Shown: positions 9,004 through 61,260, numbered from the stretch's first letter. The stretch: 64,000 nt of DNA from an uncultured delta proteobacterium (GCA_963796685.1 CAWCMR010000022.1:96001-160000), one strand, 5' to 3'. Notes: generated by a model from the letters alone, not told the origin. Numbers and translations: made by a program.

Positions 9004-9116
9004 TGCAGCATTCGGGCCACGCCCCCACCTCCGTGACTTCAACCCCTTACGCGCGCGACGGCCGCGAAAGCACGAGTCATTTCCATCAGAATGATGGGAC
9101 GACTCATTCAATTCGA
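9004..9116 (-). promoter_or_regulatory. sigma54 cassette 1 (upstream of the coiled-coil gene and glucan synthase)
   Basis: TGGCCCGAATGCTGCA on - strand (9019-9004); IHF-like CTTCAACCCCTTA 9037-9049; TCAGAATGA 9086-9094 and TCAATTCGA 9108-9116. Confidence 0.85.
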
Positions 9117-9129
9117 CGGGCAGGGTGCG

Positions 9130-9922
9130 CTAGGCGAACGACGCGACCAAGACACGCGGTCCAGGCGACACGATAGCGGAGCTCTCGGAGACCACGGGAA
9201 GTGTGTCAGGCTTTGGCATGGGTTCACCGAGGTCGACGAGTAGGATCTCGGATTCGTCGCAGGCGGTCAGCGAGACCGCGCGTTCGGCCGTGACGCCAAC
9301 ACCATCGCCCGCGGTCAGAACGATGTCACCCAGGGTGATCTCGCCCTTTACGACGTGCAGCCAGGCGCTGCGCCCCTGGGAGAAGCTCGCGGACCACGTG
9401 TTGCCCGGGGTCGAGCAGGGCCGAGTAGACAAGGGCGTCCTGGTGAATGCGCAGCGACCCTCTGCGAGCGTCGGGCGAGGCAATGGCGCACAATCCGCCG
9501 CGACGCTGGGCGGTGGTGAAACGCCTTTGCTCACAGCCGGGCTCGAGGCCGATTGCGGACGGGCGCAACCAGATCTGGAAAAAGTGCGCCCAGTCGGACC
9601 GCGATGCATTGGTCTGGCTGTGGCGAAGGCGCTGGCCGGCGGTCACGCGCTGGAACTCGCCGGTTTGCAAGATGCCCGAGCCGCCGAGCGAGTTCTCGTA
9701 GGCGAGCGCGCCCTCGCGAACGTAGGTCAAGATCTCGATGTCTTGACCCAAGGTGCGAGGAACGCCGGCGCCTGGTGCGAGGCGCGACTCTTTGAGGATC
9801 TCGATGTTCCCCAAGCCATCGACGAGTCTATCCGCTGGATCCTTCGGGTCGAAGGTGAGCCAGGTTTCGAGCTTCCGGCTCTTGTCGTGGTGTCGTTCCG
9901 CGGCCCTGCGAAGGGTGATCAT
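9130..9922 (-). pseudogene. Pirin-family bicupin protein with a +1 frameshift near 9383
   Basis: N-part EILTYVREGALAYENSLG...FFQIWLRP in ORF 9326..9922; C-part GRSAWLHVVKGEITL...EILLVDL in ORF 9130..9609. Confidence 0.8.
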
Positions 9923-9931
9923 CGCTCCGCC

Positions 9932-11575
<1,644 letters not shown>

Positions 11576-11866
11576 CTACTTGTCGAGAATCGCGAGGATG
11601 TCGTCCTCGCGCAGAATGATGTGGTCTTCGCCGTCGAGCTTCACTTCGGAGCCCGTGTATTTGCCGATCAGCACCTTGTCACCAACGTGGACCGAGAGCG
11701 CTTGCAGCTTGCCATTGTCGAGAATCTTGCCGTCGCCGACGGCGATGACCCGCGCTTCGAGCGGCTTCTCCTTGGCCGTGTCGGGAATGAACAAGCCACC
11801 GGCTGTCTGGTCTTCCTCGGCCAGTCGCTTGGCCAAGATGCGGTCATGGATCGGTCGGATCTTCAT
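11576..11866 (-). CDS. groES: Co-chaperonin GroES
   Basis: [14 protein letters not shown]...[15 protein letters not shown]...[10 protein letters not shown]; GGAG RBS. Confidence 0.97.
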
Positions 11867-11905
11867 GTGAATGCTCCTTCGAGACGTACCCAATCATCTG
11901 GGTAC

Positions 11906-12018
11906 AGCAGCTTTCGTGCCATGTGCGAAAAGCGCATGGGTTCGCCGTCCTTGAGTACGAGCGGCTCTCGCGCATGACTTTTCTCCATCAGGATGAAGTA
12001 CCTCTTCATTCAATCCGA
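11906..12018 (-). promoter_or_regulatory. sigma54 cassette 2 (groES-groEL-pirin)
   Basis: TGGCACGAAAGCTGCT (11921-11906); TCAGGATGA 11988-11996 and TCAATCCGA 12010-12018; IHF-like site degenerate. Confidence 0.85.
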
Positions 12019-12071
12019 AGCAGGGCGAGCGGTGCTCCCCACATCTACCCACCCTGGACGTGTGTCGGATT

Positions 12072-12087
12072 TGGCGTATTCGTTGCA
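12072..12087 (+). promoter_or_regulatory. Divergent sigma54 -24/-12 promoter for the BamA/TamA-like gene
   Basis: TGGCGTATTCGTTGCA (GG-N10-GC), 36 bp before ATG 12123. Confidence 0.65.
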
Positions 12088-12122
12088 AGCAGACTGCTGT
12101 CCTTGCAGAAAGAAACAGCCAC

Positions 12123-13508
12123 ATGCGCGGCGCTCGATTCCGCCTTGCCGGTCTGATCGCGGTCTTTGTCGCCGCCTTGCAATCCTCTGCCGAGGCTCGG
12201 CTTGTCGTGGATCGCGTCGTTGTCCGGGGTGCGACCAATGTCACGACACGGGTATTGACGGCGCGCATGCACCTCTACTCGGGCGATACCGTGGATTACG
12301 CGGTGCTCAGTGCGGCGCAGCAGCGTTTGATTGAAAGCGATCTGTTCAGCAAGGTGCGCGTGTTTATCGAGCTCTCCACATCCGAGGCGGTGCGGCGGAT
12401 GTACCTTGACGACACCGACTACCCGGTCGAAGTCGTGGTGGAGGCCACTGGCAAACAGCCTTGGTTCATCTTCCCCACCGCCAGTTTCGGCAGTGGAGAC
12501 TGGGCCGGTGGCGTCGCCTATGCGAACCAGAATTTGCTCGGCCGCGACGTACAGCTCATTGGCGCCGGGCAGATCGGGCAGTCTCGCAGCTACGCCTTCG
12601 TGGGGTACCGCGACCCGCTTGTCGTGGGCGCCCCGCTTACCTACGCGGTGAGCGCACTCTACCGGCGAGAGCAGATCCGCTTGTTCGCAAACCACGCCAT
12701 GGTCATGCAGGTGCCGACCATCGTGGCCGGCGGCGACGGTCAAATCGGCTGGGTGCTCACGCCACACACCCGCGCGTCTCTTGGCGTGTCTGCCCGCTAC
12801 CAGACCGTGAAACCCGCCCAAGGTCTTGCGCCTGACGCGATTCCGCTGCCTTACAATTCCCGGGGCGGTCGCATTTTCCTTTTGCAGTTCCAGTTCCAAT
12901 ACGACGACACGCGCGCCGAGGAGGGACTGCGGCAAGGGATTCTGCTCTTCCTCAAGAACGAGGTCTCCGACCGCTATTGGCTTTCGGATTTCGACTACTC
13001 CAAGTTCGAGACGCGGGCGGAGCTATACGGCCACTACTGGTGGAACTATCCGTCGCTCATTTTGAAGATGGTTCTCGACTACCCCACCTCGGACCGCGGG
13101 GTTCCCGTCACGGAAGAGCTCCGCATCGGCGGGCAGGAACTGCGTGGCTATCTTACCAATGAGTTCCACGGCGACACGCTCTTCAGCGCGCAAATCGAGG
13201 ACCAGGCGGTCCTCATGCGCTTGCGGGTCCCCTGGACGCGAACGCGGTTCAATGTCGCCGCGGCGATCTTCGTCGACGCGGCGACTCTTCTCGATCGTCA
13301 CCCAGGCGGCACCACGGTTCCACCGCCCGACAGCTTGCCTTCCCCGGTACGCTCCAAGCTCGACGATATTCACGCGAGCTTCGGCGGCGGTGTGCGGTTC
13401 ATTCTACCCGGCGTGGTGGTCCCGGCCCTCAAGATTGACGTCGGTTACGGCATCGACGTCCGCGATGTGGCCGTCACGGTTTCGATCGCTGGCGGCGGGA
13501 TCATGTAG
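12123..13508 (+). CDS. BamA/TamA (Omp85)-family outer-membrane protein with one POTRA domain
   Basis: Signal peptide MRGARFRLAGLIAVFVAALQSSAEA; POTRA-like VVVRGATN...LIESDLFSKV; NQNLLG; IGGQELRGY. Confidence 0.75.
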   Translation: MRGARFRLAGLIAVFVAALQSSAEARLVVDRVVVRGATNVTTRVLTARMHLYSGDTVDYAVLSAAQQRLIESDLFSKVRVFIELSTSEAVRRMYLDDTDYPVEVVVEATGKQPWFIFPTASFGSGDWAGGVAYANQNLLGRDVQLIGAGQIGQSRSYAFVGYRDPLVVGAPLTYAVSALYRREQIRLFANHAMVMQVPTIVAGGDGQIGWVLTPHTRASLGVSARYQTVKPAQGLAPDAIPLPYNSRGGRIFLLQFQFQYDDTRAEEGLRQGILLFLKNEVSDRYWLSDFDYSKFETRAELYGHYWWNYPSLILKMVLDYPTSDRGVPVTEELRIGGQELRGYLTNEFHGDTLFSAQIEDQAVLMRLRVPWTRTRFNVAAAIFVDAATLLDRHPGGTTVPPPDSLPSPVRSKLDDIHASFGGGVRFILPGVVVPALKIDVGYGIDVRDVAVTVSIAGGGIM

Positions 13509-13515
13509 GCGCCGG

Positions 13516-13779
13516 TCAAGTTGATACTGTATCGGTCGCCTCCGTCCCGCGCGAATCGGGGCTCTTGCCATTGCGGTGCAACTTCGCGCGCAGATCGTGG
13601 CGGAGCTCGCTTCCGACTTTTGGCGCCAAAAGCAACGCTACGCCGGCACCGACCAGCAGCCCGATGCCGAAGGTGCCGAGCGTCCCGAGCAACTGATTGG
13701 TAAAGGACCGCTTGGTCTCGAGGCCAAGAATGCCGAGATAGTCGTCTTTGTCCATGTTCCTGATGTCCTGCAATTTCAT
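13516..13779 (-). CDS. YtxH-like membrane-anchored stress protein
   Basis: FGIGLLVGAGVALLLAPKVGSELR motif; GGAG RBS. Confidence 0.75.
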   Translation of the reverse strand: MKLQDIRNMDKDDYLGILGLETKRSFTNQLLGTLGTFGIGLLVGAGVALLLAPKVGSELRHDLRAKLHRNGKSPDSRGTEATDTVST

Positions 13780-13975: not shown

Positions 13976-14185
13976 TCATCGTTGCCCAAGAAAGAGGCCG
14001 AGGCCAAAGGCAAGGGCGACCGCCATGCCAGGCTTGCGGCGCACCCACCGTCGCCAGTCCAGGCTGCGCGTCACCTCGGCCTCCAACGCGCCCATCGAAA
14101 CGACAAACTGCTCGCGCGAATGCTCGAGTTGCATGCTTGCGTGCGCGAGCGCGGAATCCGCTTCCGTCGCGGTGCTAATGGACAC
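13976..14185 (-). CDS. DUF3618/ElaB-like small protein with a C-terminal membrane anchor
   Basis: LDWRRWVRRKPGMAVALAFGLGLFLG; follows a holin-like gene as in yqjE-yqjK-type clusters. Confidence 0.6.
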   Translation of the reverse strand: MSISTATEADSALAHASMQLEHSREQFVVSMGALEAEVTRSLDWRRWVRRKPGMAVALAFGLGLFLGQR

Positions 14186-14600
14186 GGGAGTTTCCCGGAG
14201 ACGACGCGACGTCGGGAGCAGTCGCTTTGTCCAGTGCTGCCAGGCTGCTGCTCATGGCGGCGGCGGAGCTGTCCATGAGGCGCCCACCGCGCGAACGGAG
14301 TGGCGAGAAGAGGAGGCCCACGCCGGCACCGGCGATGTGGACGAGCCCGATGACCACGAGAGGAAGACCGACTGCGGGGTGGCCGCCGAGCAGGACCGCC
14401 AACCCGGCCATTGCCAATCCATATCCAAGAGCAACCAGTGTGGCCAGCACCGCGATAAGGCTGGCACGTCGACCCATCCCGTGCATTTCCGCTTTGAGCT
14501 CGAGCTGGGCGACCTTCACGTGTTGCCCGAGTAGGTGGCCAAATCCCAGCACTGCCTCCTTGGCCAGCACCGACACGCCTGGGTTTGACGTCGTCTTCAT
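14175..14600 (-). CDS. Phage-holin-like (DUF1469/YqjE-type) membrane protein
   Basis: LLGQHVKVAQLELKAEM followed by two TM segments; AGGAG RBS; ATGA overlap with the transporter stop. Confidence 0.7.
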   Translation of the reverse strand: MKTTSNPGVSVLAKEAVLGFGHLLGQHVKVAQLELKAEMHGMGRRASLIAVLATLVALGYGLAMAGLAVLLGGHPAVGLPLVVIGLVHIAGAGVGLLFSPLRSRGGRLMDSSAAAMSSSLAALDKATAPDVASSPGNSRVH

Positions 14601-15826
14601 GTGCGGGTGACTCCTGGCGAGCTCGACGCCTCCGAGGCGTGCTTTTGGCCGTGCAACACGGCATCGATAGCGACCTCGCTGCCGGTTTCGGCCGCCTTGG
14701 CCAACGCCTTGTGGTCCGTGAGCACGCGGTCTGACAGATATCCCCGCAGCCAGTGGCGCTCGACGATGGGGTAGGCGGCCACCAGGGGCAGCACCAAGAC
14801 GGCCCCGATGATTCCTTGCAACCGCCCCCCGACGAGTAGGGCAAGAAGTACCGACAGGCTGGAGATCTTGAGCTTGTTGCCATAGATGCGCGGTAACAGA
14901 AAGTAGGTCTCGAAGAGGTGATAGGCCACGTATGCGGCCAGCACTGCCACCGCGGCACCCGGCGACACCGCGAGCGCCAATAGAATGGCTGGAACCGTGG
15001 CCAGCAGAATGCCCAACACCGGGATGATGTCGCAGAATCCGGCAACCACGGCCAAGGGTGCAGCGGCCGGGACCCGCAGAATGGTCAAGAGAACGGCGGT
15101 AAAAATCGCAAAGAGCAGCGCGGCGAGAAGCTGGCCGCTGACATAGGCGTGCACCACGTCGGATACCTCGTGCATGGTGGTGGCCAACCTTTCGCGATAG
15201 GTGCGCGGTATGAAGGCCAGTATCCAAGCGTAAAGACTTTTGCCGTGGAGCAACAGATAGAGGGTGAGAACGAGAATGACTACGGTCACTACGACACCTG
15301 AGGCGGCGCTCTGGCCCCAGGCAAACCATCGACTGAAGGCACCCGCTGCCATGGAGGAGGATGCTGATTCGAAAAGCTCTCGAATAATCTTGTGGATCCC
15401 CGGATAGCGCAACGGGATTCTGCTCAGGACGCGTGCGCGGAATTCAGGAAGATTTTCCAGTAGATGGGTCAGCTGTCCGGTAAGCGGCGGCATGACGAAC
15501 ATGACGAAGACCGCCAAAAGTACAATGGCAAGGGCCGCAATAATAGCGACGCTCAATGCTCGACGGAGCCGCCTTTGCTCCATCCACCGGACGGCCGGAG
15601 ACAGCGTGACTGCAAACAGAACCGAGATGAGGAACAACAAGAACTCGGGCCACAAGAGGTAGGTCGCCCACAGGCCAAGGCCGCTTCCGATGAGCTTGAA
15701 GACCGTGGCCATCGGGATGCGAAGGTCTCGCGTGCGTCGGGTCTGAGGCGCCTTGATCTCGGTCGTGGTGTTCCATTCACCTTGCACGGGGACCCCCATC
15801 TTTTGCCGCGAATGCCAATGGTCCAA
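14597..15826 (-). CDS. AI-2E family transporter (start uncertain)
   Basis: YVSGQLLAA, CDIIPVLG, LLPRIYG, GIIGAVLVLPL; multiple TM helices. Confidence 0.88.
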   Translation of the reverse strand: MDHWHSRQKMGVPVQGEWNTTTEIKAPQTRRTRDLRIPMATVFKLIGSGLGLWATYLLWPEFLLFLISVLFAVTLSPAVRWMEQRRLRRALSVAIIAALAIVLLAVFVMFVMPPLTGQLTHLLENLPEFRARVLSRIPLRYPGIHKIIRELFESASSSMAAGAFSRWFAWGQSAASGVVVTVVILVLTLYLLLHGKSLYAWILAFIPRTYRERLATTMHEVSDVVHAYVSGQLLAALLFAIFTAVLLTILRVPAAAPLAVVAGFCDIIPVLGILLATVPAILLALAVSPGAAVAVLAAYVAYHLFETYFLLPRIYGNKLKISSLSVLLALLVGGRLQGIIGAVLVLPLVAAYPIVERHWLRGYLSDRVLTDHKALAKAAETGSEVAIDAVLHGQKHASEASSSPGVTRT

Positions 15827-15918: not shown

Positions 15919-16836
15919 TCAGCGCACGCTGAGATGCGAAGGCTGAATGATGATCTCGACACGGCGGTTGTTGGCGCGGTTCTCGGCGTTGCTATTGTCG
16001 ACGAGTGGATGGCTCGAGCCCATTCCGACAGCGCTAATCTTGGCGCTGTCCACGCCACGCGATACCAGGTAGTTGCGCACGGCGTCTGCCCGGTTCAGCG
16101 AGAGCGGTTGATTGATCCTGTCCGAACCCTGGCTGTCGGTGTAGCCCTCGACGATCATCCGCTTGTCGGAATTCTGTGCCTTGAGTGCCTCGGCCACTTG
16201 ATCGAGCTTGGTCATCGCAGTGTCGAGCAGAGCATACTTGTTCGAAGCGAAGAGAATGCTGCCGGAAAGGGTGATGACCAGCCCTCGGGAGTCTTCTTTG
16301 ATCGCGGCAATGGCGGCCAGATCCTTCATCGCACCAGCCAGCTTGCTTTCGGCCGCCACACGCGCTTGCGTCTCGGCTGCCAATTGGTCGGTGGTCTTTT
16401 CAATCTCCGCCGTCTTCGCGTTGCTGTCCCGCTGCTCTTCTTTGAGCTGCTCGCGCGTCGACGAGAGCGCCGCTCGGGTACTCTTCACCTGGTTGTCACG
16501 AGCCGTCACGCCGGCCTTCACCGCTTCGGCGATCTTCTGGCGGTCGAGCTCCGTGCGAGCCTTCGCGTCTGCCAGTTCTACCTTGTTCTGCGCGATGTAC
16601 GCGTAATCACGGCACATAACAGTGTCGCCGTGCTCGTCGAACTCCTTGTTCGCCTTGGCCAGGACTATCCAAGCATCGTGCAACTCGGTGGGGGTCAGCT
16701 TCGCCGCCAACCCGGTGTTCGCCGCCGTAAACGAAGTGCGCGCCTGAACCAATTCGGGGGGCGCAGTGGTGGCACATCCGCTAATCAATCCTGCGAGTGC
16801 GATGCTCGCCAACAAATTGGTCTTTGTGATCTTCAT
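15919..16836 (-). CDS. OmpA-family lipoprotein (DUF4398-like N-terminus, coiled coil, OmpA C-domain)
   Basis: Lipobox ISGC; RGLVITLSGSILF, EGYTDSQG, LSLNRADAV, NRRVEI. Confidence 0.9.
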   Translation of the reverse strand: MKITKTNLLASIALAGLISGCATTAPPELVQARTSFTAANTGLAAKLTPTELHDAWIVLAKANKEFDEHGDTVMCRDYAYIAQNKVELADAKARTELDRQKIAEAVKAGVTARDNQVKSTRAALSSTREQLKEEQRDSNAKTAEIEKTTDQLAAETQARVAAESKLAGAMKDLAAIAAIKEDSRGLVITLSGSILFASNKYALLDTAMTKLDQVAEALKAQNSDKRMIVEGYTDSQGSDRINQPLSLNRADAVRNYLVSRGVDSAKISAVGMGSSHPLVDNSNAENRANNRRVEIIIQPSHLSVR

Positions 16837-16870: not shown

Positions 16871-17221
16871 CTAGTTGGTTCCGCGTGAGCGAACGGCCTT
16901 CAGATCTTCGGTCGCCCTGAGGGCGTCCTGGTGTACCGAGACTTCGCGGGCAAGCCCGATGGCCAGCTCGGCATCCGAATCGGCACGAGCAAGCACCAGT
17001 ACAGCCCGCGTTTCTCCGGCAGCGGCCATCTTCTTGGCCGTGTCGGTCTGGTCTTTGGCCAGTTGCAGATGCAGTTTGGCGGCGGGCACGCCGCTCGCAC
17101 CCACTTCTTCGGCGCCGCGGATGCTCGCCTCCGAATTTGCGAGTTGATCGGGAGAAAGCTGCACCGTGGCGCAACCTGCCAGGCCTAGAACGGCTAGCAA
17201 CATCATCAATCTTTTCATCAT
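16871..17221 (-). CDS. DUF4398 lipoprotein
   Basis: Lipobox LAGC; ASIRGAEEVGA, LARADSDAELA; typical partner of the downstream OmpA lipoprotein. Confidence 0.8.
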   Translation of the reverse strand: MMKRLMMLLAVLGLAGCATVQLSPDQLANSEASIRGAEEVGASGVPAAKLHLQLAKDQTDTAKKMAAAGETRAVLVLARADSDAELAIGLAREVSVHQDALRATEDLKAVRSRGTN

Positions 17222-17273: not shown

Positions 17274-18572
17274 CTACAACGGACACCCACTGCCCGGCAC
17301 GGAAACCACGTTCGAGTCGAATACGAAGGCCCCGGCACCCCCTACCCACGCCCCTGCCATCGAGCGGCCGCACGCCGTAGACCCGGTCTTCATCGTGATA
17401 TCGAAGCCCGCCAGCACGTTGCCTTGGAACTCGGTGTACGAGCCAAGTGTTGCCGAGCTCGCCACTTGCCACCAGACATTGGACGCCTTGGTCCCGTTGG
17501 TCAGCAAAATGCGAGCATGGGCTCCTGGGCTGGGGGCGCCGTCGGCCGTCGTAAGGGAGCTGGCCGATTGGAAGACGAAGACGGCGTTTGCGTCGCCTTG
17601 GCCGTCGAGCGTGACATCTCCGGCGAGCAAGAGTGACGTGGTCGAGGTGTAGACGCCAGGCGTGAACCAGTTGTCACCGAGCACGAGGGGACTTCCAGCC
17701 ACGTTCCCCAAGGTCGTGGGCGCTGCGATGGGCGTACCCCCACCCAAGGAACCAACTGCCGGTGGTCCGGCCAAGGGTGTGATGGCGAGAAACGCCGCGT
17801 TCAAGTCGGCCTTGATGGCGCTTGCCGTGGTCGTGTCCGGATACGTGTTGGTAATGACCGTTCCGCTGATCGTCGGAGGCATGCCACCGCAAAGGCCGAA
17901 GCCGCCGGCGTTGTCGACCGTCACGGCGTTGCACGTTCGATCCGGCGTGAGCACCACGTCACCATTGATGTGGGTGATCGGCGACGTGATGGTGTTGGTA
18001 ATACCCGCCGTGGCCGCAATCGCAAACGGCTCGGCCTTTCCAAGGTTTACGACGATGGCAGGCCCTGACGCGGAGCCATCGATGTTCTCGAAATCCGTGG
18101 TCTCCGCGTCGATGAGGGCCGCGTCGAGCTTTTCGGTGTCGATGCCGGGCACGTCGGCGGCATGAGCGTCCAGGATTGGAACATTGCTCTCGGGAACGTC
18201 GAGGACCGAAACGTCGGGGACAAGGACATCGCCGATAGGCGCGTCGGAGACAGCGACGTCGAAACTGCCGGTGTCGGGAGTGCCGGCTTCTGCGATGGGT
18301 GTATCGGCAGTGCCGCTGTCGACCTTCGCCGCGTCGGCGACGTCCGTCTTGAGCTCCACGGTGTCGGCATTTGCGCCATCCGCGTTTGCGCTGTCGGGGT
18401 TCGCCAGGTCGAGATTTCCGGCGTCGGGGATCGCCCTATCGCCGCTGACGGCATCGGCCTTTCCGGCGTCTGGCTGGGCTGCATCGGTGGGAGGAAACTC
18501 GACGAGCTGTCCTCCGCAGGCGGGCAAAAGGATCAAGGACAAAAACAGCGCGTGGTGTTGGAGGGTCTTCAT
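17274..18572 (-). CDS. Ice-binding-like (DUF3494) lipoprotein with an Asp/Ala-rich low-complexity stalk
   Basis: Lipobox LPAC; NLGKAEPFAI, TPGVY, VTLDGQGDANAVFVFQ, ASNVWWQV, FQGNVLA. Confidence 0.85.
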   Translation of the reverse strand: MKTLQHHALFLSLILLPACGGQLVEFPPTDAAQPDAGKADAVSGDRAIPDAGNLDLANPDSANADGANADTVELKTDVADAAKVDSGTADTPIAEAGTPDTGSFDVAVSDAPIGDVLVPDVSVLDVPESNVPILDAHAADVPGIDTEKLDAALIDAETTDFENIDGSASGPAIVVNLGKAEPFAIAATAGITNTITSPITHINGDVVLTPDRTCNAVTVDNAGGFGLCGGMPPTISGTVITNTYPDTTTASAIKADLNAAFLAITPLAGPPAVGSLGGGTPIAAPTTLGNVAGSPLVLGDNWFTPGVYTSTTSLLLAGDVTLDGQGDANAVFVFQSASSLTTADGAPSPGAHARILLTNGTKASNVWWQVASSATLGSYTEFQGNVLAGFDITMKTGSTACGRSMAGAWVGGAGAFVFDSNVVSVPGSGCPL

Positions 18573-18573
18573 A

Positions 18574-19746
18574 TTACTTGCTCCCGTCATTGAGGATCGT
18601 GAAGTAGACGACGAACTCGACACGGCGGTTGTTTTCACGGCCGGCGATGGTTTCGTTGGTATCGATCGGAACGGATGAGCCGAAGCCTTTCGAGGCCAGG
18701 CGTTCCTTGTCGATACCGTGCGATACCAGATAGTTCAGCACCGCCTCGGCCCGCTGCTCGGAAAGGGTCTGATTACGCTCGTCCCCACCTTCCGACGAGG
18801 AATGCCCCTCGACCTGAACGCGAAAACCCTTGTTGTCATTCAAAGCCTGCACGACTTCATCCAGAACCGGGAACGAGACTTCCTGAAGAACGGCCTGGTT
18901 CCAGGCGAAGTAGAGCTTCTCGTTCAGCTCGAGCTTGTCCTTCTTGATGACGAGCTTCTTGTACGTGGGGCAGCCCCAGTTGTCCATCGGCCCGACCACG
19001 TCGGGGCAGTGGTCTACATTATCGGGGATGCCATCGTGGTCCCGGTCCGGGCAAACGAAAAGCTTCTTCTCGACGCTTCGAGCTTCGGGAGGGGCGGCAA
19101 TGGGGGCTCGACGTTCCGAGCCCATGGCAACCTCGAGGCTTACGCCCAGGCTCAAGAGCTTGGCGTCGTTGTTGTCGTACCCGCGACGCTCTTGCTGCAT
19201 GATTTGAAAGTAGCGCGCGAACGGACCGACCCAGAAGAGACGCGACCTGCCGATCGGCACCGATAAACCGACAGCTGCCGCGAAACCTGGCCGGTTGAGG
19301 TGTCCGGTGCGAACGTAGAGAAGGTCCGCGTCCGCCCAGGGCAAGACCCCGAGAAATAGATCGCTCGCGGTTCGCGGGGGGCGGACACGTAGGCTTCCGC
19401 CGAAGGTCCATGCCGTTCCACCTTCTGCACCGGCTGTTTCGTTGGGCAGCGCCAGAAAGGTTGCGCTGGGCCCGATGTCCACGAGCTGGTTGACGACCCA
19501 CAGCGCCTTGATGGTTTCACCGCCGCCGGTCTTGAAAATGCGAGACTGCGGGTTCGTGAGCGGCAAAGCAACACCAGGCTCGAGCTTCAAGGCAAAGTCC
19601 CCGACCTGGGCCGGCACGGGGGCCTCGTCGGAGGTATCGCCTTCGTCCGCCTGTGCCAAGTGGTCGAATAGCAGCAGGACAGCAGCAGTCAGGGCTATCG
19701 TCGTCGAGTACGCGTATCGGACTCTCGTGTGCATTGGTGTCTCCAT
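18574..19746 (-). CDS. OmpA-family outer-membrane protein (beta-barrel, TSP3-like repeat, OmpA C-domain)
   Basis: DRDHDGIPDNVDHCP, VEGHSS, LSEQRAEAV, NRRVEF. Confidence 0.9.
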   Translation of the reverse strand: METPMHTRVRYAYSTTIALTAAVLLLFDHLAQADEGDTSDEAPVPAQVGDFALKLEPGVALPLTNPQSRIFKTGGGETIKALWVVNQLVDIGPSATFLALPNETAGAEGGTAWTFGGSLRVRPPRTASDLFLGVLPWADADLLYVRTGHLNRPGFAAAVGLSVPIGRSRLFWVGPFARYFQIMQQERRGYDNNDAKLLSLGVSLEVAMGSERRAPIAAPPEARSVEKKLFVCPDRDHDGIPDNVDHCPDVVGPMDNWGCPTYKKLVIKKDKLELNEKLYFAWNQAVLQEVSFPVLDEVVQALNDNKGFRVQVEGHSSSEGGDERNQTLSEQRAEAVLNYLVSHGIDKERLASKGFGSSVPIDTNETIAGRENNRRVEFVVYFTILNDGSK

Positions 19747-19768
19747 GTTGATCTTTGCTGGCGGCTAA

Positions 19769-19882
19769 AGCAGCAATCGGGCCACTGCCCTGACGCTCAT
19801 GACTTCAGGTACTTGCACCGAGGCGAGTTGTGAAGACGAAGGCCATCCCAATCAAGATGACGTGGACCATCGTTCAAAATGA
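19769..19882 (-). promoter_or_regulatory. sigma54 cassette 3 (ompA through ytxH-like run)
   Basis: TGGCCCGATTGCTGCT (19784-19769); IHF-like CTTCAGGTACTTG 19803-19815; TCAAGATGA 19852-19860 and TCAAAATGA 19874-19882. Confidence 0.87.
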
Positions 19883-19950
19883 GTCGGTCGAGGGATTGTG
19901 GCCAGCAGAGTGGCCTTGGCGTCAAACATCTCCCGAGCCGGACATACGGG

Positions 19951-21360: not shown

Positions 21361-21376
21361 GTTAGGCCGGGTCTAA

Positions 21377-21489
21377 AGCAGCATTCGAGCCATAGGCCGG
21401 AAGAAGGTAAGTTCAAGCGCTTGGCGCGTGGAAGACCCTCGGGAATGGCTTGACGCAATCAAAACGAAGCGAAGCGCCCATCATTGCGA
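21377..21489 (-). promoter_or_regulatory. sigma54 cassette 4 (wcaJ)
   Basis: TGGCTCGAATGCTGCT (21392-21377); IHF-like GTTCAAGCGCTTG 21411-21423; TCAAAACGA 21459-21467 and TCATTGCGA 21481-21489. Confidence 0.82.
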
Positions 21490-21514
21490 GCGAGCTGTCC
21501 TGGCTGCGATGGCG

Positions 21515-22111
21515 CTATTCACTTGGAACTGAAGTGACGGCCCGAGGAAAGACGATGAGCGCCAGTTGGTCAGCTCTTGCCCACTCGGTCGCAAAGCCGT
21601 CGCGGCTGTTCACGCGTAGGCCGTGCGCCGGATCGAGCGTGAGAATGCGTTGCCGCTGGCGGTTGATCCCCACCACGACCTCGTAGTGGGGATAGTAGCG
21701 GAAAAGGTAGCGCTTCATCATGCCGACCAGGACGGGACGGTGTCGCTGAATCTCGCGGTCTAGGTCGCCCTGTCGGCCTTGAATGAGGAAGGCCTGAAGA
21801 CCCTTCCTGCGAGCGAAGTCGCGGAGAGCCGCAGCAGGAATGCCCCGTTCGGGGGCGGGTGGGTTGGCGGCGACGACCTCGGCGCCCGTAACCGGGTACC
21901 CCCAGCGTTGGAGAACCATGGCCAGGGCTGCGGCACCGCAGTCCTCGCGTGTCACTTGGCGCACGTCGGGGACCGCCTCGACTACCTGCCATCCGCCCTC
22001 GCGCGCCAATTGCGACGGCGTGGTCGTCCTGGCGGAGCCCAGATAGCAACCGCTCGCCAGGACGAGCCCGACTAGCGCAAGGCGCCCCGGGCATCGATCG
22101 GGTAGCCTCAT
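21515..22111 (-). CDS. Stand-alone C39-like cysteine peptidase lipoprotein (PA2778-like)
   Basis: Lipobox ASGC; RQVTREDCGAAALAMVL, HYEVVVG, LDPA catalytic motifs. Confidence 0.82.
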   Translation of the reverse strand: MRLPDRCPGRLALVGLVLASGCYLGSARTTTPSQLAREGGWQVVEAVPDVRQVTREDCGAAALAMVLQRWGYPVTGAEVVAANPPAPERGIPAAALRDFARRKGLQAFLIQGRQGDLDREIQRHRPVLVGMMKRYLFRYYPHYEVVVGINRQRQRILTLDPAHGLRVNSRDGFATEWARADQLALIVFPRAVTSVPSE

Positions 22112-22461: not shown

Positions 22462-22525
22462 GGAATGTCCCTCCGACACTGGACCAGGCGACTCGACAAA
22501 ACTACTGGCATCGTCCAAAGCATGT

Positions 22526-26745: not shown

Positions 26746-26780
26746 GTGCGCTCCTTGCATCTAGGTCTTCACCGACCTAC

Positions 26781-26891: not shown

Positions 26892-26966
26892 AGGACCGTC
26901 GGCACGTCGCGCCGGTCCCCGACATCCTAGAGAGCGACCAGCAAGGGTGCGCAGGTCGCGTTGCAT

Positions 26967-41978: not shown

Positions 41979-41980
41979 CC

Positions 41981-54493: not shown

Positions 54494-55268
54494 GTGTTCG
54501 GCTGGTTGAGGAGACGGCGGCGGGAGGGGATTCGGCGCCGTCCGTTTCCGGTCGAATGGCGTGCGGTCATCGAGAAGAACGTTCCCTTCGCGGCGTGCCT
54601 GCCTCCGGAAGACCGCGTGGAAGCTCGAAGGTCACATTCAGGTGTTTCTCGAGGAGAAGTACTTCGAAGGTTGTGGCGGGTTGCAGATCACCGACGAGGC
54701 GCGGGTTACGATCGCTGCCCAGGCATGTGTTCTTCTCCTCCATCGCGAGACGGACTACTACCCGAACCTCGTCTCCATCTTGGTGTATCCCAGCACCTAT
54801 CTTGTCCCGGGTGGTCAGCGCACCACGGATGGATTGGTCGCCGACGGTCTGCAAGCGCGGCTCGGAGAATCATGGGCGCGCGATGTGGTCGTGCTGGCCT
54901 GGGATAGCGTGCTTTCGGGCGCAGCCGATATTCACGACGGACACAACGTCGTTTTGCACGAATTCGCGCACCAGCTGGACCAAGAGTGCAATACGGGCCA
55001 GGGGGTGCCGGTGCTTCCCAGGCGTTCGATGTACGTCGCGTGGGCGCGCGTTCTCGGTCACGACTTCGATCAGCTCGTGCGTGAGACCCAGCACCATCAC
55101 CGGACGCTGATGGACCAGTATGGCGCGACCAATCCAGCCGAGTTCTTTGCCGTGGCGACCGAGACGTTCTTCGAAAAGCCACGCCGGCTTCGGGAAAAGC
55201 ATCCACAGCTCTATTCCCAACTGCAGCAGTTCTACCGCCAGGATCCGGCAACGCTCGTCGAAGGCTGA
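54494..55268 (+). pseudogene. M90 (MtfA-like) zinc-dependent peptidase with a frameshift near 54621
   Basis: GTG start VFGWLRRRRR...PFPVEW; then FLEEKYFEGCGGL, ILVYP, HEFAHQLD, YGATNPAEFFAV. Confidence 0.85.
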
Positions 55269-55277: not shown

Positions 55278-55763
55278 TCAGGGAGCGATCTTCTCGCTCA
55301 GCCACTGCCGGGTCGTCTCGACGGAGTCTTTCAACGCGACGTAGGACTCGTTGAAGCCACTCTTCACATCGTTCCAGGTGGACTCGGTAGCGTTCTGCGC
55401 CTGGTCGAGCTGTTGCTTCGTCTTGGTCCATTTCTCGCGCACGACTTCCAGCTTGGCCTTGGCCTCGGCCTTCGCCGCGCCACCGGAGTCGTCAACCTTG
55501 GCGGCGAGGAGGTTCAGGTCGTCCTGGAGCTCGCCGAGGTCTTTGTTCATCTTGGCGACGAATTCGGACCTCCGCGCGTAGGCGTAGTCCTCCATCGCTT
55601 GTGCGGCTTCTGCCGTTGCTGCCTTGGCCTTGCCGAGCTGAAGGGCCGCAGCTGAGTCTTGCTGCGTCCCATTCGTCGGTCTGTCGGCAGTGGATTTGCA
55701 GCCTACGGCCAGAACCCCAGCGGAAAAGATGAAGAGCGGGAAAGCCAGTTTCGAGTTGGTCAT
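55278..55763 (-). CDS. Coiled-coil stress lipoprotein (Sll1863-like)
   Basis: Lipobox AVGC; YAYARRSEFV; ATESTWNDVKSGF. Confidence 0.72.
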   Translation of the reverse strand: MTNSKLAFPLFIFSAGVLAVGCKSTADRPTNGTQQDSAAALQLGKAKAATAEAAQAMEDYAYARRSEFVAKMNKDLGELQDDLNLLAAKVDDSGGAAKAEAKAKLEVVREKWTKTKQQLDQAQNATESTWNDVKSGFNESYVALKDSVETTRQWLSEKIAP

Positions 55764-55791: not shown

Positions 55792-55941
55792 TCAAGTCAG
55801 GCGGCGCCCCTGGATGATACGAACCAGGACCAGGACTACGGCGGCCACGAGAAGGATATGGATGAACCCTCCCATGGCGTGAGCCGTGAAGAATCCGAGT
55901 GCCCACAACACCAGAAGGATGACGGCGATTGTCCACAGCAT
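55792..55941 (-). CDS. lmo0937-family small membrane protein (49 aa; absent from the ORF track)
   Basis: MLWTIAVILLVLWALGFFTAHAMGGFIHILLVAAVVLVLVRIIQGRRLT; GGAG RBS. Confidence 0.88.
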   Translation of the reverse strand: MLWTIAVILLVLWALGFFTAHAMGGFIHILLVAAVVLVLVRIIQGRRLT

Positions 55942-55953: not shown

Positions 55954-56139
55954 TCACGAAATGGCGTTGCGAAGTGGGCGCGAGGTCTTGAAGCGTGGCG
56001 CGTGCCACAACATGTGCGAGATGGTCTGCGTGGCCAGACTGGAAACCTCTTGCGGGTTGGCGCCGTACTGCGCGGCCTTGTCGAATACGGTCAGGATCAA
56101 TTCGCCTAGGGGGACGGTCGCTTGCATTTGGGTCTTCAT
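55954..56139 (-). CDS. Small hypothetical protein
   Basis: MKTQMQATVPLGELILTVFDKAAQYGANPQEVSSLAT; first gene after cassette 7. Confidence 0.6.
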   Translation of the reverse strand: MKTQMQATVPLGELILTVFDKAAQYGANPQEVSSLATQTISHMLWHAPRFKTSRPLRNAIS

Positions 56140-56170
56140 ATCTTTGCCTTTCTTGGAATATGCATTCTAC

Positions 56171-56290
56171 CTACAGCAGGTTTCGGGCCATCAAGTAGTT
56201 GGCATTGAATTCAGCAGGTTGCATCGTGAATCGCGATTGTTCCTGGCTTGTTCAATCAAGGTGACGTAGCTTTCCCATCAAATCGAAGGA
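56171..56290 (+). repeat. 120-bp direct repeat, copy A (copy B at 61145-61264)
   Basis: Manual alignment: 114/120 identical, no gaps. Confidence 0.92.
56175..56286 (-). promoter_or_regulatory. sigma54 cassette 7
   Basis: TGGCCCGAAACCTGCT (56190-56175); IHF-like ATTCAGCAGGTTG 56209-56221; TCAAGGTGA 56256-56264 and TCAAATCGA 56278-56286. Confidence 0.88.
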
Positions 56291-56339
56291 GTGGCTGGTG
56301 ACGAGGGAGGGGCAGAAAGCAGGGCGAAGGCGTCGACAC

Positions 56340-56492: not shown

Positions 56493-56864
56493 TCATGCTG
56501 CGACGCGCGGGCGCCGGCGCATCGCGACCGTCGAGGTCGCGACTGCATCGTCGTTTCCGCGAAGACGCAGCCACAACTTCGCAAGTCCAGCCAGCTCTAT
56601 CTGGCGCACACGTTCACGCGTGACCGACAATCGACTGGCAATCTCTTCGAGAGTCATGCCGCCACGCTCAGCGGCTTCAAGCGCGCAGGCTTCGCGCACG
56701 ACAGGAAGGTGCATCTCTGCCGGCTTTGCGCCGCGGTTGTCTCGTCGTTCGGAAGTCAGGTTGAAACGGCACACGGTGTGTGGGCACGGGCCCGGAAGCT
56801 TTCGGCAAGCACCCCCCGTGATTTCGTGGAGATTGATGTGCAATTCGCGGGGAATGCGTGGCAT
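56493..56864 (-). CDS. Stand-alone Cys-rich sigma70 region-4 HTH protein
   Basis: CRKLPGPCPHTVCRFNL...CALEAAERGGMTLEEIASRLSVTRERVRQIE; GGAGG RBS. Confidence 0.72.
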   Translation of the reverse strand: MPRIPRELHINLHEITGGACRKLPGPCPHTVCRFNLTSERRDNRGAKPAEMHLPVVREACALEAAERGGMTLEEIASRLSVTRERVRQIELAGLAKLWLRLRGNDDAVATSTVAMRRRPRVAA

Positions 56865-57000
56865 AGGACACCTCCAGGTCTGGAGTTGATGGGTCGTTTC
56901 GCGGATTCCAGTCGACCAAGCAGCTTTCGAGCCATGAGCGAAACGCAGTAGAGATCAACCACTTACAGCATGGCGGGCGACAAAGGCCGGTTCCGTTCCA

Positions 57001-57690
57001 TCAAAGTGAAGTTGTATCTCCGTCCCCATCAAGGATCTCTCGCACCTTTGCCGAAAGCCCCACGACGTCAAAGGGCTTCTGGATGAACCCGTTGCAACCG
57101 CTGTCGAGGAGCTCCTGGGCCTGTCCTTCGATGCTGTAACCACTGGAGAGGAGCCGGCGCGGTCAAGACCTCGTAGCCGAGCTTCTGCAAGAGGCGAGCG
57201 CTGACATTCACGATCTGCTCCTCGTCGTCGACGACCAGGATGGTCCCGGTACCGCGCCGAAGGACCGCCGTGGGGGTCTTGTCCTCCACGGCCTGACGTT
57301 CGGTCGCGGGCAGGAGAAGCGTGAAGACCGTGCCCTTGCCCGTCTCGCTCTCGACCCCGATGAAACCTGCGTGGTTCTTGATGATGCCGTAGACCGAGGC
57401 GAGCCCCAGCCCCGTGCCCTGGCCAGGGCCCTTGGTTGTGAAGAAGGGTTCGAAGATCCTCGCCATGGTTTTGGCGTCCATTCCACATCCCGTGTCGGTG
57501 ACGATGAGTTTCGCGTAAAGGCCAGGCGGAACCCCGGTCTGTGCTCCGGGCCCGCTGTAACTCCTCGTTCTGCATCTCCAGCTCAATCTGGTGTACTTGC
57601 AGTTCGTGCAATAGCCGGCGCATCTCCAACGGCGTGTTGGCCCTTTCCGCGCATCCGTCACTCCCATAACTTCCCTTGATCCCATTTCCC
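57001..57690 (-). pseudogene. Hybrid histidine kinase remnant with internal deletions
   Basis: Pieces in different frames: LLHELQVHQIELEMQNEEL; DTGCGMD..FEPFFTTKG..GTGLGL..ILVVDDE; SSGYS..GFIQKPF. PAS, HisKA and mid-receiver segments are missing. Confidence 0.8.
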
Positions 57691-57692
57691 TA

Positions 57693-60281
57693 TTAGACCG
57701 ATTGATTCTGGCGCAGTGTCGCCTCGAGTGTCTTGGCTGCGGTGATATCGGCAAAGGTGATCACGACGCCATCAATGCGGTTGTCCAGCGTGCGGTAGGG
57801 CATGATGCGCACCGCGAACCAGCGCCCGTCGACGGTCTTCACCGGCGTCTCCTTGAACACCAGGGTTCGGAGGACAGTTTGCGCGTCGGAAGCGAGCTCG
57901 GGATAGACCAAATCCGAAGCAAGATCGCTGATGGGTCGATTCAGGTCGCCGGGAATGAGCTTGATGATCTTCGTCATCCGCGGGGTGAAGCGCCGCACCT
58001 TCAGCGCTTCATCCAGGAACAGGGTGGCGATGTCGGTGCTGTCCAGCAGGTTTCGCATGTCATCGTTGGCGTGCGATTCGGCGTCGACCTTGGCCTGCAG
58101 CTCGTGATTGAGGGTTTGCAGCTCCTCGTTCAGGGACTGCATTTCCTCCTTGGACGTGGTCAGCTCCTCGTTCGTGCTCTGCAGCTCCTCGTTGGTGGAC
58201 TGCAATTCCTCGTTGGCCGATTTGAGCTCTTCCTGGGACGTCTGCATTTCCTCCCGCGTGGATCGGATCTCCTCGCGCGCATGCCGTAGCTCCTTTTCCA
58301 GCCTCTCCTCGGACGCGGAAATGCGCGTGCGCTTGCCCGCCGGTTTATCGGCGGGGGACTCGCTCACCTCGGTGAACACGATCATCACCATCCCGCACAT
58401 CGCTGGCGGCTCGCGCAGCGGCTCGATGGTGACGTCAACAACCTGGACGACCCCGCGGTCTTTCAACCGCACGCGAATCTGCGCGGCGCCGCGCTGCTCT
58501 CGCAGTGCCTTCTGGAAGGCACCACCAAGCTCGTTGCGCAATCCCTCGCGGGCCATGGCATGGATGTTCCAGTTGGCTTTGCCGGCAGCCGGCTCGAGAT
58601 ACCTGCCCGTTCGCCCGCTGATATAGAGAATGTCCCCCTGGCCGTTGGTGAGCACGGCGGCGGGGGAATAGCGGGCGAGCAGAAGCTGCTCGGCCTGAGC
58701 TTGCAGATTGGGAAGCGCCACCCCTCTGCCAGCCGCCGGGTCCGTCGGACGTGGACGGGCATGGAAGGATGCCGGAAATTCGACCGGCGTGGCCCCGGGC
58801 TGTGCATCGAGGCGGCGATGGATCCGGTTTTTGCCGCCCTTCGGGGCAAAAAGGTCGGCGACCGGCCCCAGCGTCTCCGCGCTGCCCAGAAAGAGGATGC
58901 CGCCCGGACTCAGGCTGTAGTGAAAAATCGGAAGAAGCTTCGTTTGCAGCTCGGGCTCGAAGTAGATGAGAAGGTTGCGGCAACTCAGAATGTCCAGCTT
59001 GGTGAAAGGGGGATCCATGATGATGTTCTGGGTGGCGAAAACCACCGACTCGCGGATGTCCTGCCGCACTCGGTAGCCTTGCTCTTCCTTCACGAAGAAT
59101 CGGCCCAATCGCTCCACCGAAACGTCGCTGGCGATGCTGGTCGGGTAGCTTCCCTGTCTCGCTCTTTCGATGGAGTCCTTGTCGAGGTCGGTGGCGAAGA
59201 TCTGCAGCAGGTAGCTTCGGGCCGGCTGCGCCTCCGCCAATACCTCCCTGAAGATAATGGCCAGCGAATATGCCTCCTCTCCGGTCGAGCAGCCTGGCAC
59301 CCACGCCCGCAGTACCCCACCCATGGGGCGTTCCGACAGCAGGGCAGGGATGGCCTTTTTCTTCAGGTAGTCCCAGGCTTCCGGATCGCGGAAGAAGTTG
59401 GTTACGCCGATGAGGAGTTCCTTGAAGAGAATTGCGGTTTCCTGCGGGCTCTCCTGCATATAGCGCAAGTAGCCGGTGATACCGGCGATGTGGTGAAGTC
59501 CCATGCGCCGCTCGATGCGGCGGTAGATGGTGCTTCGCTTGTACTGCGAAAAATCGTGACCGGTCTGACTTCGCAAGAGGACGCATATCTTCTCGATCGC
59601 ACTTTCGGTCTTGGAGGCCAGGACGAGACCGGGAGAGGCTACGCGTGGAGGGCGGGCGAGGTAGGCTACGATCTTGTCAGCCAGTTCCTCGACGGGCGCC
59701 ACCACATCCGCCAGCCCTGCATCGATGGCGCTCCTGGGCATGGAGTCGAACTTGGCAGACGCGGGGCTTTGCACGAACACCGCCCCCCCCTTCTCTTTGA
59801 TGGCAGAGAGACCGAGGGTACCATCCGATCCCATTCCCGAGAGGAGCACCCCGATGCCCTGGGGCCCTTGGTCCGCGGCCAGGGAGCGCAGGAAAAGGTC
59901 AATGGGCAGACGCAGCCCATGCGGCGCCGCCGGTGCCAGCAAGTGCAGCACTCCGTGCAGGATAGACAGATCTTTGTTGGGAGGAATGACGTAGACGCGA
60001 TCAGGCTCGACCTTCAGGCGATCCTTGACCTGAAGAACCTTCATCGGTGTGGCCCGCGATAGCAGCTCGACCAACATGCCCTTGTGAGTCGGGTCCAAAT
60101 GTTGAACGATCACGAAGGCGAGGCCGCTCTTGTCCGGTAAGTGGCGCAAGAAGGTCTCGAGCGCCTCCAGACCTCCAGCCGAGGCACCGATGCCGACGAT
60201 GGGGAACGAAGGAGGCGTTCCCGCGACCAATTTGGTGGCTTTCTCCGCTTTCAGGGTTTTCAGTTGTCGTTTGCGAGTCAT
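57693..60281 (-). CDS. CheB-CheR fusion with coiled coil and C-terminal PAS
   Basis: GIGASAGG, VQHL, GMGSDG (CheB triad); IGVTNFFRD, GCSTGEEAYS, CRNLLIY (CheR); EELQSTNEEL repeats. Confidence 0.92.
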   Translation of the reverse strand: MTRKRQLKTLKAEKATKLVAGTPPSFPIVGIGASAGGLEALETFLRHLPDKSGLAFVIVQHLDPTHKGMLVELLSRATPMKVLQVKDRLKVEPDRVYVIPPNKDLSILHGVLHLLAPAAPHGLRLPIDLFLRSLAADQGPQGIGVLLSGMGSDGTLGLSAIKEKGGAVFVQSPASAKFDSMPRSAIDAGLADVVAPVEELADKIVAYLARPPRVASPGLVLASKTESAIEKICVLLRSQTGHDFSQYKRSTIYRRIERRMGLHHIAGITGYLRYMQESPQETAILFKELLIGVTNFFRDPEAWDYLKKKAIPALLSERPMGGVLRAWVPGCSTGEEAYSLAIIFREVLAEAQPARSYLLQIFATDLDKDSIERARQGSYPTSIASDVSVERLGRFFVKEEQGYRVRQDIRESVVFATQNIIMDPPFTKLDILSCRNLLIYFEPELQTKLLPIFHYSLSPGGILFLGSAETLGPVADLFAPKGGKNRIHRRLDAQPGATPVEFPASFHARPRPTDPAAGRGVALPNLQAQAEQLLLARYSPAAVLTNGQGDILYISGRTGRYLEPAAGKANWNIHAMAREGLRNELGGAFQKALREQRGAAQIRVRLKDRGVVQVVDVTIEPLREPPAMCGMVMIVFTEVSESPADKPAGKRTRISASEERLEKELRHAREEIRSTREEMQTSQEELKSANEELQSTNEELQSTNEELTTSKEEMQSLNEELQTLNHELQAKVDAESHANDDMRNLLDSTDIATLFLDEALKVRRFTPRMTKIIKLIPGDLNRPISDLASDLVYPELASDAQTVLRTLVFKETPVKTVDGRWFAVRIMPYRTLDNRIDGVVITFADITAAKTLEATLRQNQSV

Positions 60282-60449
60282 TTGGGTAGGGCTCCCGATT
60301 GTGAGCTTGGCCGAGCCTGATGCATGGTCTGGGCCAGTCGAGGTTGTGCGAGCGAAGCGAGATGTTCGATGAGGCGAAGGCACCATTGGCTGCGCGCTTG
60401 ACGTACGCTCCTGGAGCTCACCGCAGCGAAGAGAGGATGAGGGTGCCCG

Positions 60450-61172
60450 ATGAATGGCAAGGATGACAAGCCGAAAGGCATCGCCGGACTGCGCTGGCGG
60501 GCCGAAGAGATCGCCCAGGGGCAAGGCGCTCTCTCGCCAAAGGAGCTCACGCTCATGTCGCGCGAAGAAATGCTGAAGCTTGTCCATGAGCTTCGCGTGC
60601 ATCAGATCGAGCTGAAGATGCAGAATGAAGAGCTGGTTCGGGCCCAATCGGACCTGACCGCGACCAGGGAGCGCTATTTCGATCTCTGTAACTTGGCGCC
60701 CGTGGGTTACTTCGTCGTCTCCCGCGAGGGGCGCATTTTGGAAACCAATTCGACCGGCGCTATCCTGCTGGGCCTTCCCCGGGCCGCTCTCATCAAACAG
60801 CCCATCACCAAAACGGGCCAAGCGCTCACGTGCGAGCTGCGGATGGTGAAGGCCGACGGAGCCGCATTCTGGGTTCGCCTGACAGCCACCACGCAGGCCC
60901 CCGCAGGCACCGACGGTGCGCCCGTGAGCCGCGTCGTGCTGAGCGACATAAGCGAGCAGAAACAGATGGAGCGAGACAATGCCATGCTGGATGCTCGACT
61001 GCAACAGACCGAGCTCCAGGGCGCCGAGACCGCAAGCCCTCGAGGGGAAAAGGTGGCAAAGGCAGCAGAGATCGGGGAAAGACCTCCGGAAGCTGAGTCT
61101 TGCGGCGTTCCATTCATGGCGTGCGCCGCGAAGAATCCGAGTCCCTACAGCAGGTTTCGGGCCGTCAAGTAG
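60450..61172 (+). pseudogene. Truncated PAS sensor (N-terminal part of a kinase)
   Basis: LRWRAEE, HELRVHQIELKMQNEEL, YFDL..APVGY, SDISEQKQME; no output domain; ORF ends inside cassette 8. Confidence 0.65.
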
Positions 61173-61260
61173 TCGGCAATGAATTCAGCAGCTTGCGTCG
61201 TGAATCGCGATTGTTCCTGGCTTGTTCAATCAAGGTGACGTAGGTTTCCCATCAAATCGA
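61149..61260 (-). promoter_or_regulatory. sigma54 cassette 8, adjacent to the activator gene
   Basis: CGGCCCGAAACCTGCT (61164-61149); IHF-like ATTCAGCAGCTTG 61183-61195; TCAAGGTGA 61230-61238 and TCAAATCGA 61252-61260. Confidence 0.85.

Follow-up and report, generated by a model that had tools for sequence, protein, structure and literature searches.

What controls an island of bacterial genes in which one operon after another is preceded by the same short, promoter-like cassette? The question is raised by a 64,000-nt stretch of DNA from an uncultured delta proteobacterium (GCA_963796685.1, CAWCMR010000022.1:96001-160000), referred to below as the window. It corresponds to C22:96001-160000 in an assembly of 7.31 Mb (26 contigs, 88.6% complete), and the closest named relatives of the source genome are labelled Polyangia or Myxococcota. 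The G+C content of the window is 61.6%, compared with 64.4% for contig C22. Cassettes precede most operons of the island, and their sequence indicates that they are probably sigma-54 promoters run by a bacterial enhancer-binding protein, or bEBP, of the XylR/DmpR family, whose gene lies next to one of them.

Sigma-54 promoters follow a TGGCACG-N4-TTGCW-like context in which the GG and GC doublets are exactly 10 nt apart; transcription from such promoters begins some 12 nt past the GC and requires rpoN together with an ATPase activator. A sequence-only reading of the window had proposed eight cassettes with this exact GG-N10-GC spacing. On inspection all eight were found in place, each reading TGGC or CGGC, seven nucleotides and CTGC, and a ninth copy beyond that list was located at 56917-57035 on the minus strand. 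All nine cores are intact and read YGGCNC(G/A)-N4-CTGC(T/A), which makes them of the -24/-12 type. The cassettes and the activator gene are listed below; R1 is a sequence-only profile built from these nine copies.

9002-9120, minus strand: cassette 1, R1 match with E 4.4e-19
11903-12022, minus strand: cassette 2, R1 match, lacking a site like that of integration host factor (IHF)
19766-19885, minus strand: cassette 3, R1 match
21374-21494, minus strand: cassette 4, R1 match
26778-26896, minus strand: cassette 5, R1 match
31797-31914, plus strand: cassette 6, R1 match
56172-56291, minus strand: cassette 7, R1 match
56917-57035, minus strand: cassette 8, R1 match with E 2e-20
61146-61265, minus strand: cassette 9, R1 match, divergent to the bEBP gene and a duplicate of cassette 7
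61268-62929, plus strand: bEBP gene with the domain order XylR_N-V4R-AAA+(GAFTGA)-HTH_8, in three frame segments

Two half-palindromes lie upstream of the core. The claim that they are exactly 22 bp apart held for seven of the eight cassettes first listed, in the form of a TCR-N3-TGA pair; in the plus-strand copy the proximal core has CCA in place of TCA. The distal core is at -96 to -99 relative to the GG of the -24 box and the proximal core starts 74-77 nt before it; the gap of 65-68 bp reported between the proximal site and the -24 box was recovered. In cassette 8, the distal enhancer site is off register, within the 3' end of a receiver-domain gene. At IHF-assisted enhancers, a site of the consensus WATCAANNNNTTR is expected between enhancer and core promoter. 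An IHF-like site, YAA-N4-NTGAW, begins 31-32 nt before the GG in eight of the nine copies and is missing at groES, the copy whose upstream NTTCAR-type site had already been described as degenerate.

A strict composite regular expression was run on the window, on the whole 7.31-Mb genome and on 300 first-order shuffles of the window. It matched seven times in the window, nine times in the genome (eight on C22, one on C9) and never in the shuffles. With R1, 12 genome matches were obtained at E <= 6e-6, 10 of them within 60 kb; a tenth copy lies outside the window at window-equivalent 64871-64987 and contig C9 carries two further cassettes. The spacers, which had been said to differ in most copies, do so in all but the pair 56172-56291 and 61146-61265. 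These two form a recent 125-nt duplicate with 94% identity, a direct repeat (56170-56294 and 61144-61268) with copies 4974 bp apart, and the window therefore holds eight independent copies, not nine. The repeat pair looks like the outcome of recombination between cassettes. The 4974-bp segment between the repeats contains a truncated PAS gene, a CheB-CheR-PAS fusion, the end of a receiver-domain gene and another cassette.

The protein encoded beside cassette 9 has the domains expected of a sigma-54 activator. Its AAA+ domain (PF00158) was matched at 3.4e-70 in the window copy and at 2.9e-69 in a paralog on C9, with GAFTGA present in the translation. The sensor region matched both PF06505 (XylR_N) and PF02830 (V4R), and retains the Cys/Glu/Cys/Cys zinc-ligand positions in alignments to MopR and DmpR. 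HTH_8 was matched at 2.3e-13 in the C9 copy and, in the window copy, only in a shifted frame. Compared with the DmpR structure 6iy8, the activator gave E 3e-89 over residues 6-455, and its sensor domain matched MopR, PoxR and DmpR at about 1e-21 to 1e-23. The genome contains one rpoN (PF04552 at C8:341294-341770, 217 bits), 54 matches to the sigma-54 interaction (bEBP AAA+) domain and seven HU/IHF-family genes.

Relative to the C9 paralog, the window copy shows a 1-nt gap near 61724 and one extra nucleotide near 62814. The paralog itself (L001:12403-14016) is intact, with 537 aa, all domains and 84% nucleotide identity to the window copy, and the recognition helix IGSATLYRKLKSYG is identical in both. 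It is likewise divergent to a cassette, which leads a 61-aa protein, a DUF5670-like protein and a PRC-barrel gene, the last interrupted by an IS91-family element. Here the system occurs a second time, on a smaller scale (L001 = G000:C9:16001-36000), and nearby lie a tyrosine integrase, a split gene for a PEP-utilising enzyme, a ferritin/Dps-like gene and, preceded by a weaker cassette, a DUF3996 gene. A sigma-70 consensus scan of the intergenic regions between bEBP and cassette found no site in the window or the C9 copy; such a scan is uninformative for this phylum, so that autoregulation of the activator is a step that we infer.

For the cassette survey, 101 related genomes were scanned with R1, and for the activator survey the best 80 of at least 549 relatives that tblastn gave in species representatives were used. 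Related genomes are not independent of one another. R1 matched 34 of the 101 genomes, among them all 12 of the genus and members of several further families in the class; the copies, as many as 30 per genome, are often clustered. When 69 copies taken from other genomes were footprinted, information was high only at four blocks, namely the two enhancer sites, an AA..TGAA IHF-like site (moderately conserved) and the -24/-12 core, and the spacers varied. The consensus runs from TCCtTCgaAtTGAagG over 6 variable positions to taCtTCAtttTGAT.Ga and, after a variable stretch, continues with gcAA.t..ctGaaatca, a second variable stretch and TGGC.CG.aa.cTGCTg. Both cores and GG-N10-GC were present in 114 of 150 distinct full-length cassettes. 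Among these 114, the enhancer spacing was 22 bp in 89 and 21 bp in 20, and the proximal core began 74-77 nt before the GG in 95.

The best 80 activator relatives share 67-95% identity and are labelled Myxococcota, Acidobacteriota, Gemmatimonadota, Desulfobacterota (one isolate included), Eiseniibacteriota, Schekmanbacteria and Chitinispirillaceae, with several of the loci on megabase contigs; the family as a whole comprises at least 3110 protein clusters. In 71 of the 80 loci a cassette, complete or represented by at least the enhancer portion, is found divergently upstream of the bEBP, its distal edge mostly 44-54 nt from the bEBP start codon. By label, this arrangement was present in Acidobacteriota 18/18, Gemmatimonadota 2/2 and Desulfobacterota 3/3. 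A sensor domain of >=70% identity was found in 28 of 34 cassette-positive but only 3 of 67 cassette-negative relatives. Median identity over the best 80 loci was 75% for XylR_N, 73% for V4R plus linker, 86% for AAA+ and 78% for the HTH. Between the source genome and five genomes of other phyla the activator is 75-79% identical, compared with 36-56% for RpoN and 66-72% for GroEL. R2 placed three to eight cassettes clustered near the bEBP in three of these five (Holophaga-, Desulfarculia- and Acidobacteriota-labelled), and gave two overlapping matches in a fourth. No conserved gene was found downstream of the bEBP across 70 loci, where the largest cluster had four members, and no partner sensor is therefore proposed.

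First genes were collected from 198 nhmmer matches, of which 171 extend to the -12 end (two of these without an open reading frame, ORF). Loci L004-L023 overlap L104-L123, and duplicates were discarded by exact sequence. All 161 unique products were clustered and the 150 with the best E-values were run against Pfam. Those that recur most are a 61-aa protein (14 places in 12 genomes), ice-binding-like proteins (12), OmpA-like proteins, a 92-aa protein and PAS kinases (8 each), SPFH proteins (6), GroES and DUF5670 (5 each), and PRC and WcaJ proteins (4 each). In a Holophaga-labelled genome, a cassette (L125, G102:C1:1305802-1308918) leads a protein whose N-terminus, judged by eye, resembles that of an OsmY-type BON-domain protein. 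The proposal of the sequence-only reading that upstream activating sequences, IHF-like site and -24/-12 box define one sigma-54 regulon under one activator is thus supported in silico by the single rpoN, the conservation of only the named motifs, the recurrence of orthologous targets, and the linkage and co-occurrence of cassette and bEBP.

Several results weigh against this reading. The window's own bEBP gene is out of frame twice in the assembly, and copies are also broken, elsewhere in the gene, in G001, G058, G010, G012 and G034 (G001:C2:53782-54969, G058:C196:572-1768, G010:C12, G012:C31 and G034:C1; out of frame or with a stop). The IHF-like motif agrees only partly with WATCAANNNNTTR, besides its absence at groES. 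Six of the 34 cassette-positive genomes have no activator of >=70% identity (G008, G016, G018, G062, G064, G086), and in three genomes the activator is present without a cassette match. The genome of the Desulfocarbo isolate gave no genome-wide R2 match at E <= 0.001, its divergent site being recovered only by a restricted upstream scan. First genes vary between phyla, for example with BON-like and SPFH proteins. The spacing statistics lean towards the model geometry because the collecting profiles penalise indels; the fixed distance to the activator start codon is independent of it. Behind the broken copies there could be either repeated decay of surplus copies or errors of assembly, and some genomes of the genus or family with broken copies also hold an intact one.

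Two frame disruptions within 1.66 kb, while the large neighbouring ORFs (2889, 1164, 1103 and 976 aa) stay open, would also suit a decaying remnant in the source genome, with the island activator a pseudogene and the promoters silent or otherwise driven; the truncated PAS gene and insertion sequence element of the island point the same way. We consider this unlikely, given an intact C9 paralog of 537 aa with all domains and the same IGSATLYRKLKSYG helix, and nine cassettes with intact cores. Alternatively, the promoters may depend on sigma-54 while a different regulator, or several of about 45 bEBPs in the genome, would bind at their upstream sites, the XylR-like gene being just one target of the regulon. 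The 54 sigma-54 interaction domain matches, the six cassette-positive genomes without a detectable ortholog and the small HTH protein led by one cassette leave room for this. It is quite unlikely when set against the distal site about 50 nt from the bEBP start in most of the 71 of 80 loci across phyla, the co-occurrence of 28/34 versus 3/67, the 78% median identity of the HTH, and the lack of any other conserved neighbour.

Very improbable, finally, is a repeat spread by duplication or recombination, that is, a mobile promoter-like element without common regulatory function. One pair is indeed 94% identical at a distance of 4974 bp, with one copy antisense into a gene fragment, and transposases and an integrase occur in the window and C9 loci. 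Outside that pair, however, the spacers diverge while the four motif blocks persist, the cassettes keep a consistent orientation and distance relative to the following start codon, orthologous genes of different genomes have cassettes whose spacers have diverged, and Rfam found no family in the window. We return to the cassettes as probable sigma-54 promoters of one bEBP, and to the genes that they precede. The next ORF starts 15-86 nt past the end of the cassette model for the in-window copies, the copy at 61163 being the exception. The stress-type gene content that had been claimed for the island was borne out by Pfam, and the genes behind each cassette are as follows.

Cassette 1: 92-aa coiled-coil protein (8696-8971) and GH94 cyclic beta-1,2-glucan-synthase-like gene (2-8668; at least 2889 aa, running off the window)
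Cassette 2: groES (11579-11866), groEL (9932-11566, minus strand) and a pirin gene (9326-9922)
Cassette 3: OmpA-like (18577-19734), ice-binding-like (17274-18638), DUF4398 (16871-17221), DUF4398-OmpA (15919-16836), AI-2E transporter (14597-15826), 69-aa ORF (13976-14185) and YtxH (13516-13779)
Cassette 4: WcaJ-like sugar transferase (19954-21360)
Cassette 5: PRC-barrel (25981-26745), alpha-glucan phosphorylase (23471-25981), YflT/DUF1269 (22919-23443), ORF without a Pfam match (22147-22737) and C39-like peptidase (21515-22111)
Cassette 6: 85-aa membrane protein (31999-32253), then a plus-strand gene row (32267-53610) predicted to encode 6PGDH-like, GlgX-like, HAD, acetate kinase, PRC and phosphoketolase proteins, an aldolase-GH15 fusion, an MFS sugar transporter, a P-type ATPase, transaldolase, an HMBD P-type ATPase and DUF2254
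Cassette 7: 61-aa protein (55957-56139), DUF5670/lmo0937-like 49-aa protein (55792-55941) and 161-aa lipoprotein (55278-55763)
Cassette 8: 123-aa protein with a sigma-70 region-4 HTH (56496-56864)
Cassette 9: antisense into a PAS gene fragment (60450-61172, plus strand), then the CheB-CheR-PAS gene (57693-61004, start uncertain)

Three groEL copies occur in the genome, and the cassette-led one shares 77% and 74% identity with the other two. The PAS gene fragment is real, with 74% identity to its C9 paralog. A protein atlas search with the 61-aa first-gene product returned unnamed clusters only, with scores < 0.9. Units without a cassette are Omp85 (12060-13508), UPF0182 (27432-29789), a DDE transposase (29813-31231), an M90 peptidase (54561-55268), a kinase-receiver gene (62926-63981) and the activator gene itself.

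The sequences show the architecture, how it is conserved, its linkage to the activator gene and the co-occurrence; from these we infer binding, sigma-54 dependence, a signal and a physiological role, which together would give the following circuit. Each cassette has two pseudo-palindromes of about 15 bp, with the cross-genome consensus TCCTTCGAATTGAAGG and ACTTCATTTTGATGGA, 22 bp apart and on one helix face, which would be its own enhancer and could fit two dimers; an IHF-like site, the putative bend site, and a TGGCNCG-N4-CTGCT core complete it. The cassettes would form the operator set of one XylR/DmpR-family bEBP, encoded divergently about 50 bp from a cassette. Sensing of a stimulus by XylR_N-V4R would lift repression of the AAA+ domain, and activator dimers at the two sites would assemble into the active oligomer. 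The DNA bend would then deliver the oligomer to the closed sigma-54 holoenzyme, where ATP hydrolysis would open the promoter. The intact C9 paralog, having the same recognition helix, would act at all sites.

Through this circuit the source genome would remodel its envelope and periplasm by means of cyclic glucan synthase and the OmpA-like, ice-binding-like and WcaJ proteins. It would also supply an accessory GroESL and small stress proteins (YtxH, YflT, PRC-barrel, DUF5670), and break down glycogen for a route through phosphoketolase and acetate kinase. Gene content gives a role in stress or dormancy about an even chance, and the theme is a loose one because first genes differ between phyla.

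How does this arrangement compare with known systems? General stress regulons use a sigma-70-family factor with partner switching. The sigma-B, EcfG and RpoS regulons resemble the island in YtxH, YflT, PRC-barrel and small membrane proteins, in glycogen use, and in the Dps-type ferritin near the C9 copy. The cassettes, in contrast, are of the -24/-12 type and not promoters of an alternative sigma factor of the sigma-70 family, with remote enhancers and an ATPase activator predicted. PspF/psp, other sigma-54 envelope-stress systems and the NifA-dependent groESL3 of Bradyrhizobium combine sigma-54, a bEBP and IHF at stress or chaperone genes, and groESL3 shows that an accessory chaperonin operon can have a -24/-12 promoter; the present system differs in its activator class and sensor, its far larger operator set and its cross-phylum module. 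DosR of mycobacteria and the lxa locus of Burkholderia offer a comparable island of chaperones, small stress proteins and substrate-level ATP, the latter represented here by glycogen phosphorylase and debranching enzyme leading through phosphoketolase to acetate kinase. Their regulators, which are response regulators or of the FNR type and act at sigma-70 promoters, are unrelated to the XylR/DmpR-type activator, and no universal stress protein domains, in contrast to DosR/lxa, were seen in the island genes.

Closest by sequence are XylR (Pu/Ps, TOL plasmid) and DmpR/MopR/PoxR, which belong to the same bEBP family as the activator. These systems likewise have palindromic upstream sites and a -24/-12 core, and at xylR/Ps the regulator gene is divergent, with overlapping enhancer sites. 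Whereas they serve one or two promoters and aromatic catabolism, 10-30 promoters per genome and envelope, chaperone and glycogen genes are concerned here, and the sensor, unlike theirs, is about 74% identical across phyla. The activator retains the four zinc-ligand positions and the pocket His of DmpR/MopR, but has Leu or a gap in place of the 'strictly conserved' pocket Trp (DmpR W128, MopR W134). As this phenol-positioning Trp is absent, a different effector is expected; with the non-aromatic targets, this argues that the protein is not a phenol/toluene sensor, although it is a family member by sequence and domain order. The zinc-ligand and pocket residues of DmpR are named in PMC7264223, which also describes palindromic upstream sites and dimer-of-dimers activation for DmpR; two pseudo-palindromes two helical turns apart would fit two dimers, matching that picture.

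Activator and cassettes behave like a portable, probably mobile module common to several phyla. Each promoter carries its own enhancer, bend site and core and would therefore need only the near-universal sigma-54 and IHF of the host; if these suffice, whole islands could be transferred across phyla with their co-regulation kept. A self-contained, horizontally portable regulon, by which stress or dormancy islands are plugged into hosts of different phyla and stay co-regulated, is accordingly conceivable, and we put it forward tentatively, with doubt outweighing confidence. The identity of the sensor between Myxococcota and Acidobacteriota, together with an activator more conserved as a whole than GroEL, would then imply a universal internal cue. 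Should the regulon be portable in this sense, the cue would be internal, for example a hydrophobic metabolite reporting energy or water status, and not an environmental aromatic.

The machinery is the canonical sigma-54 architecture; the regulon, its size, its cross-phylum spread and a non-aromatic XylR-type sensor are new. No description of the activator, operator or regulon was found in the literature searched, including passages of PMC12316311 and PMC7264223; subscription journals and supplements lay outside this search, and a prior description is possible. The recurrence of the module in soil and sediment bacteria of several phyla points to a regulon for stress or dormancy that has so far gone undescribed. 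Many Myxococcota and Acidobacteriota are abundant soil and sediment organisms whose ways of entering and surviving stress or dormancy are little understood. The circuit is testable, with one activator family, a defined 15-bp operator, a rigid promoter geometry and a regulon readable from genomes. It would carry the XylR/DmpR sensor family beyond aromatic catabolism and place a sigma-54 system beside the general stress responses of the sigma-B/EcfG/RpoS type. It also suggests a reason why modules built on sigma-54 may pass readily from one phylum to another. The operator/activator pair could also act as an orthogonal expression switch.

Some minor features of the window and its genome were also recorded. 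A single 1164-aa ORF at 40940-44434 (plus strand) joins class-I fructose-bisphosphate aldolase, glucodextranase-N and GH15 glucoamylase domains. The DDE_5 transposase gene at 29813-31231 (minus strand) sits between the UPF0182 gene and the plus-strand cassette. Inside the CheB-CheR-PAS gene, a 21-nt periodic repeat (58098-58244) corresponds to a heptad-like coiled-coil segment. Enhancer-like pairs with 22-bp spacing and no recognisable -24/-12 core occur at C9:24372-24402, at C25:1241268-1241298 and, outside the window, at C22:161597; two of these pairs are symmetric and match both strands.

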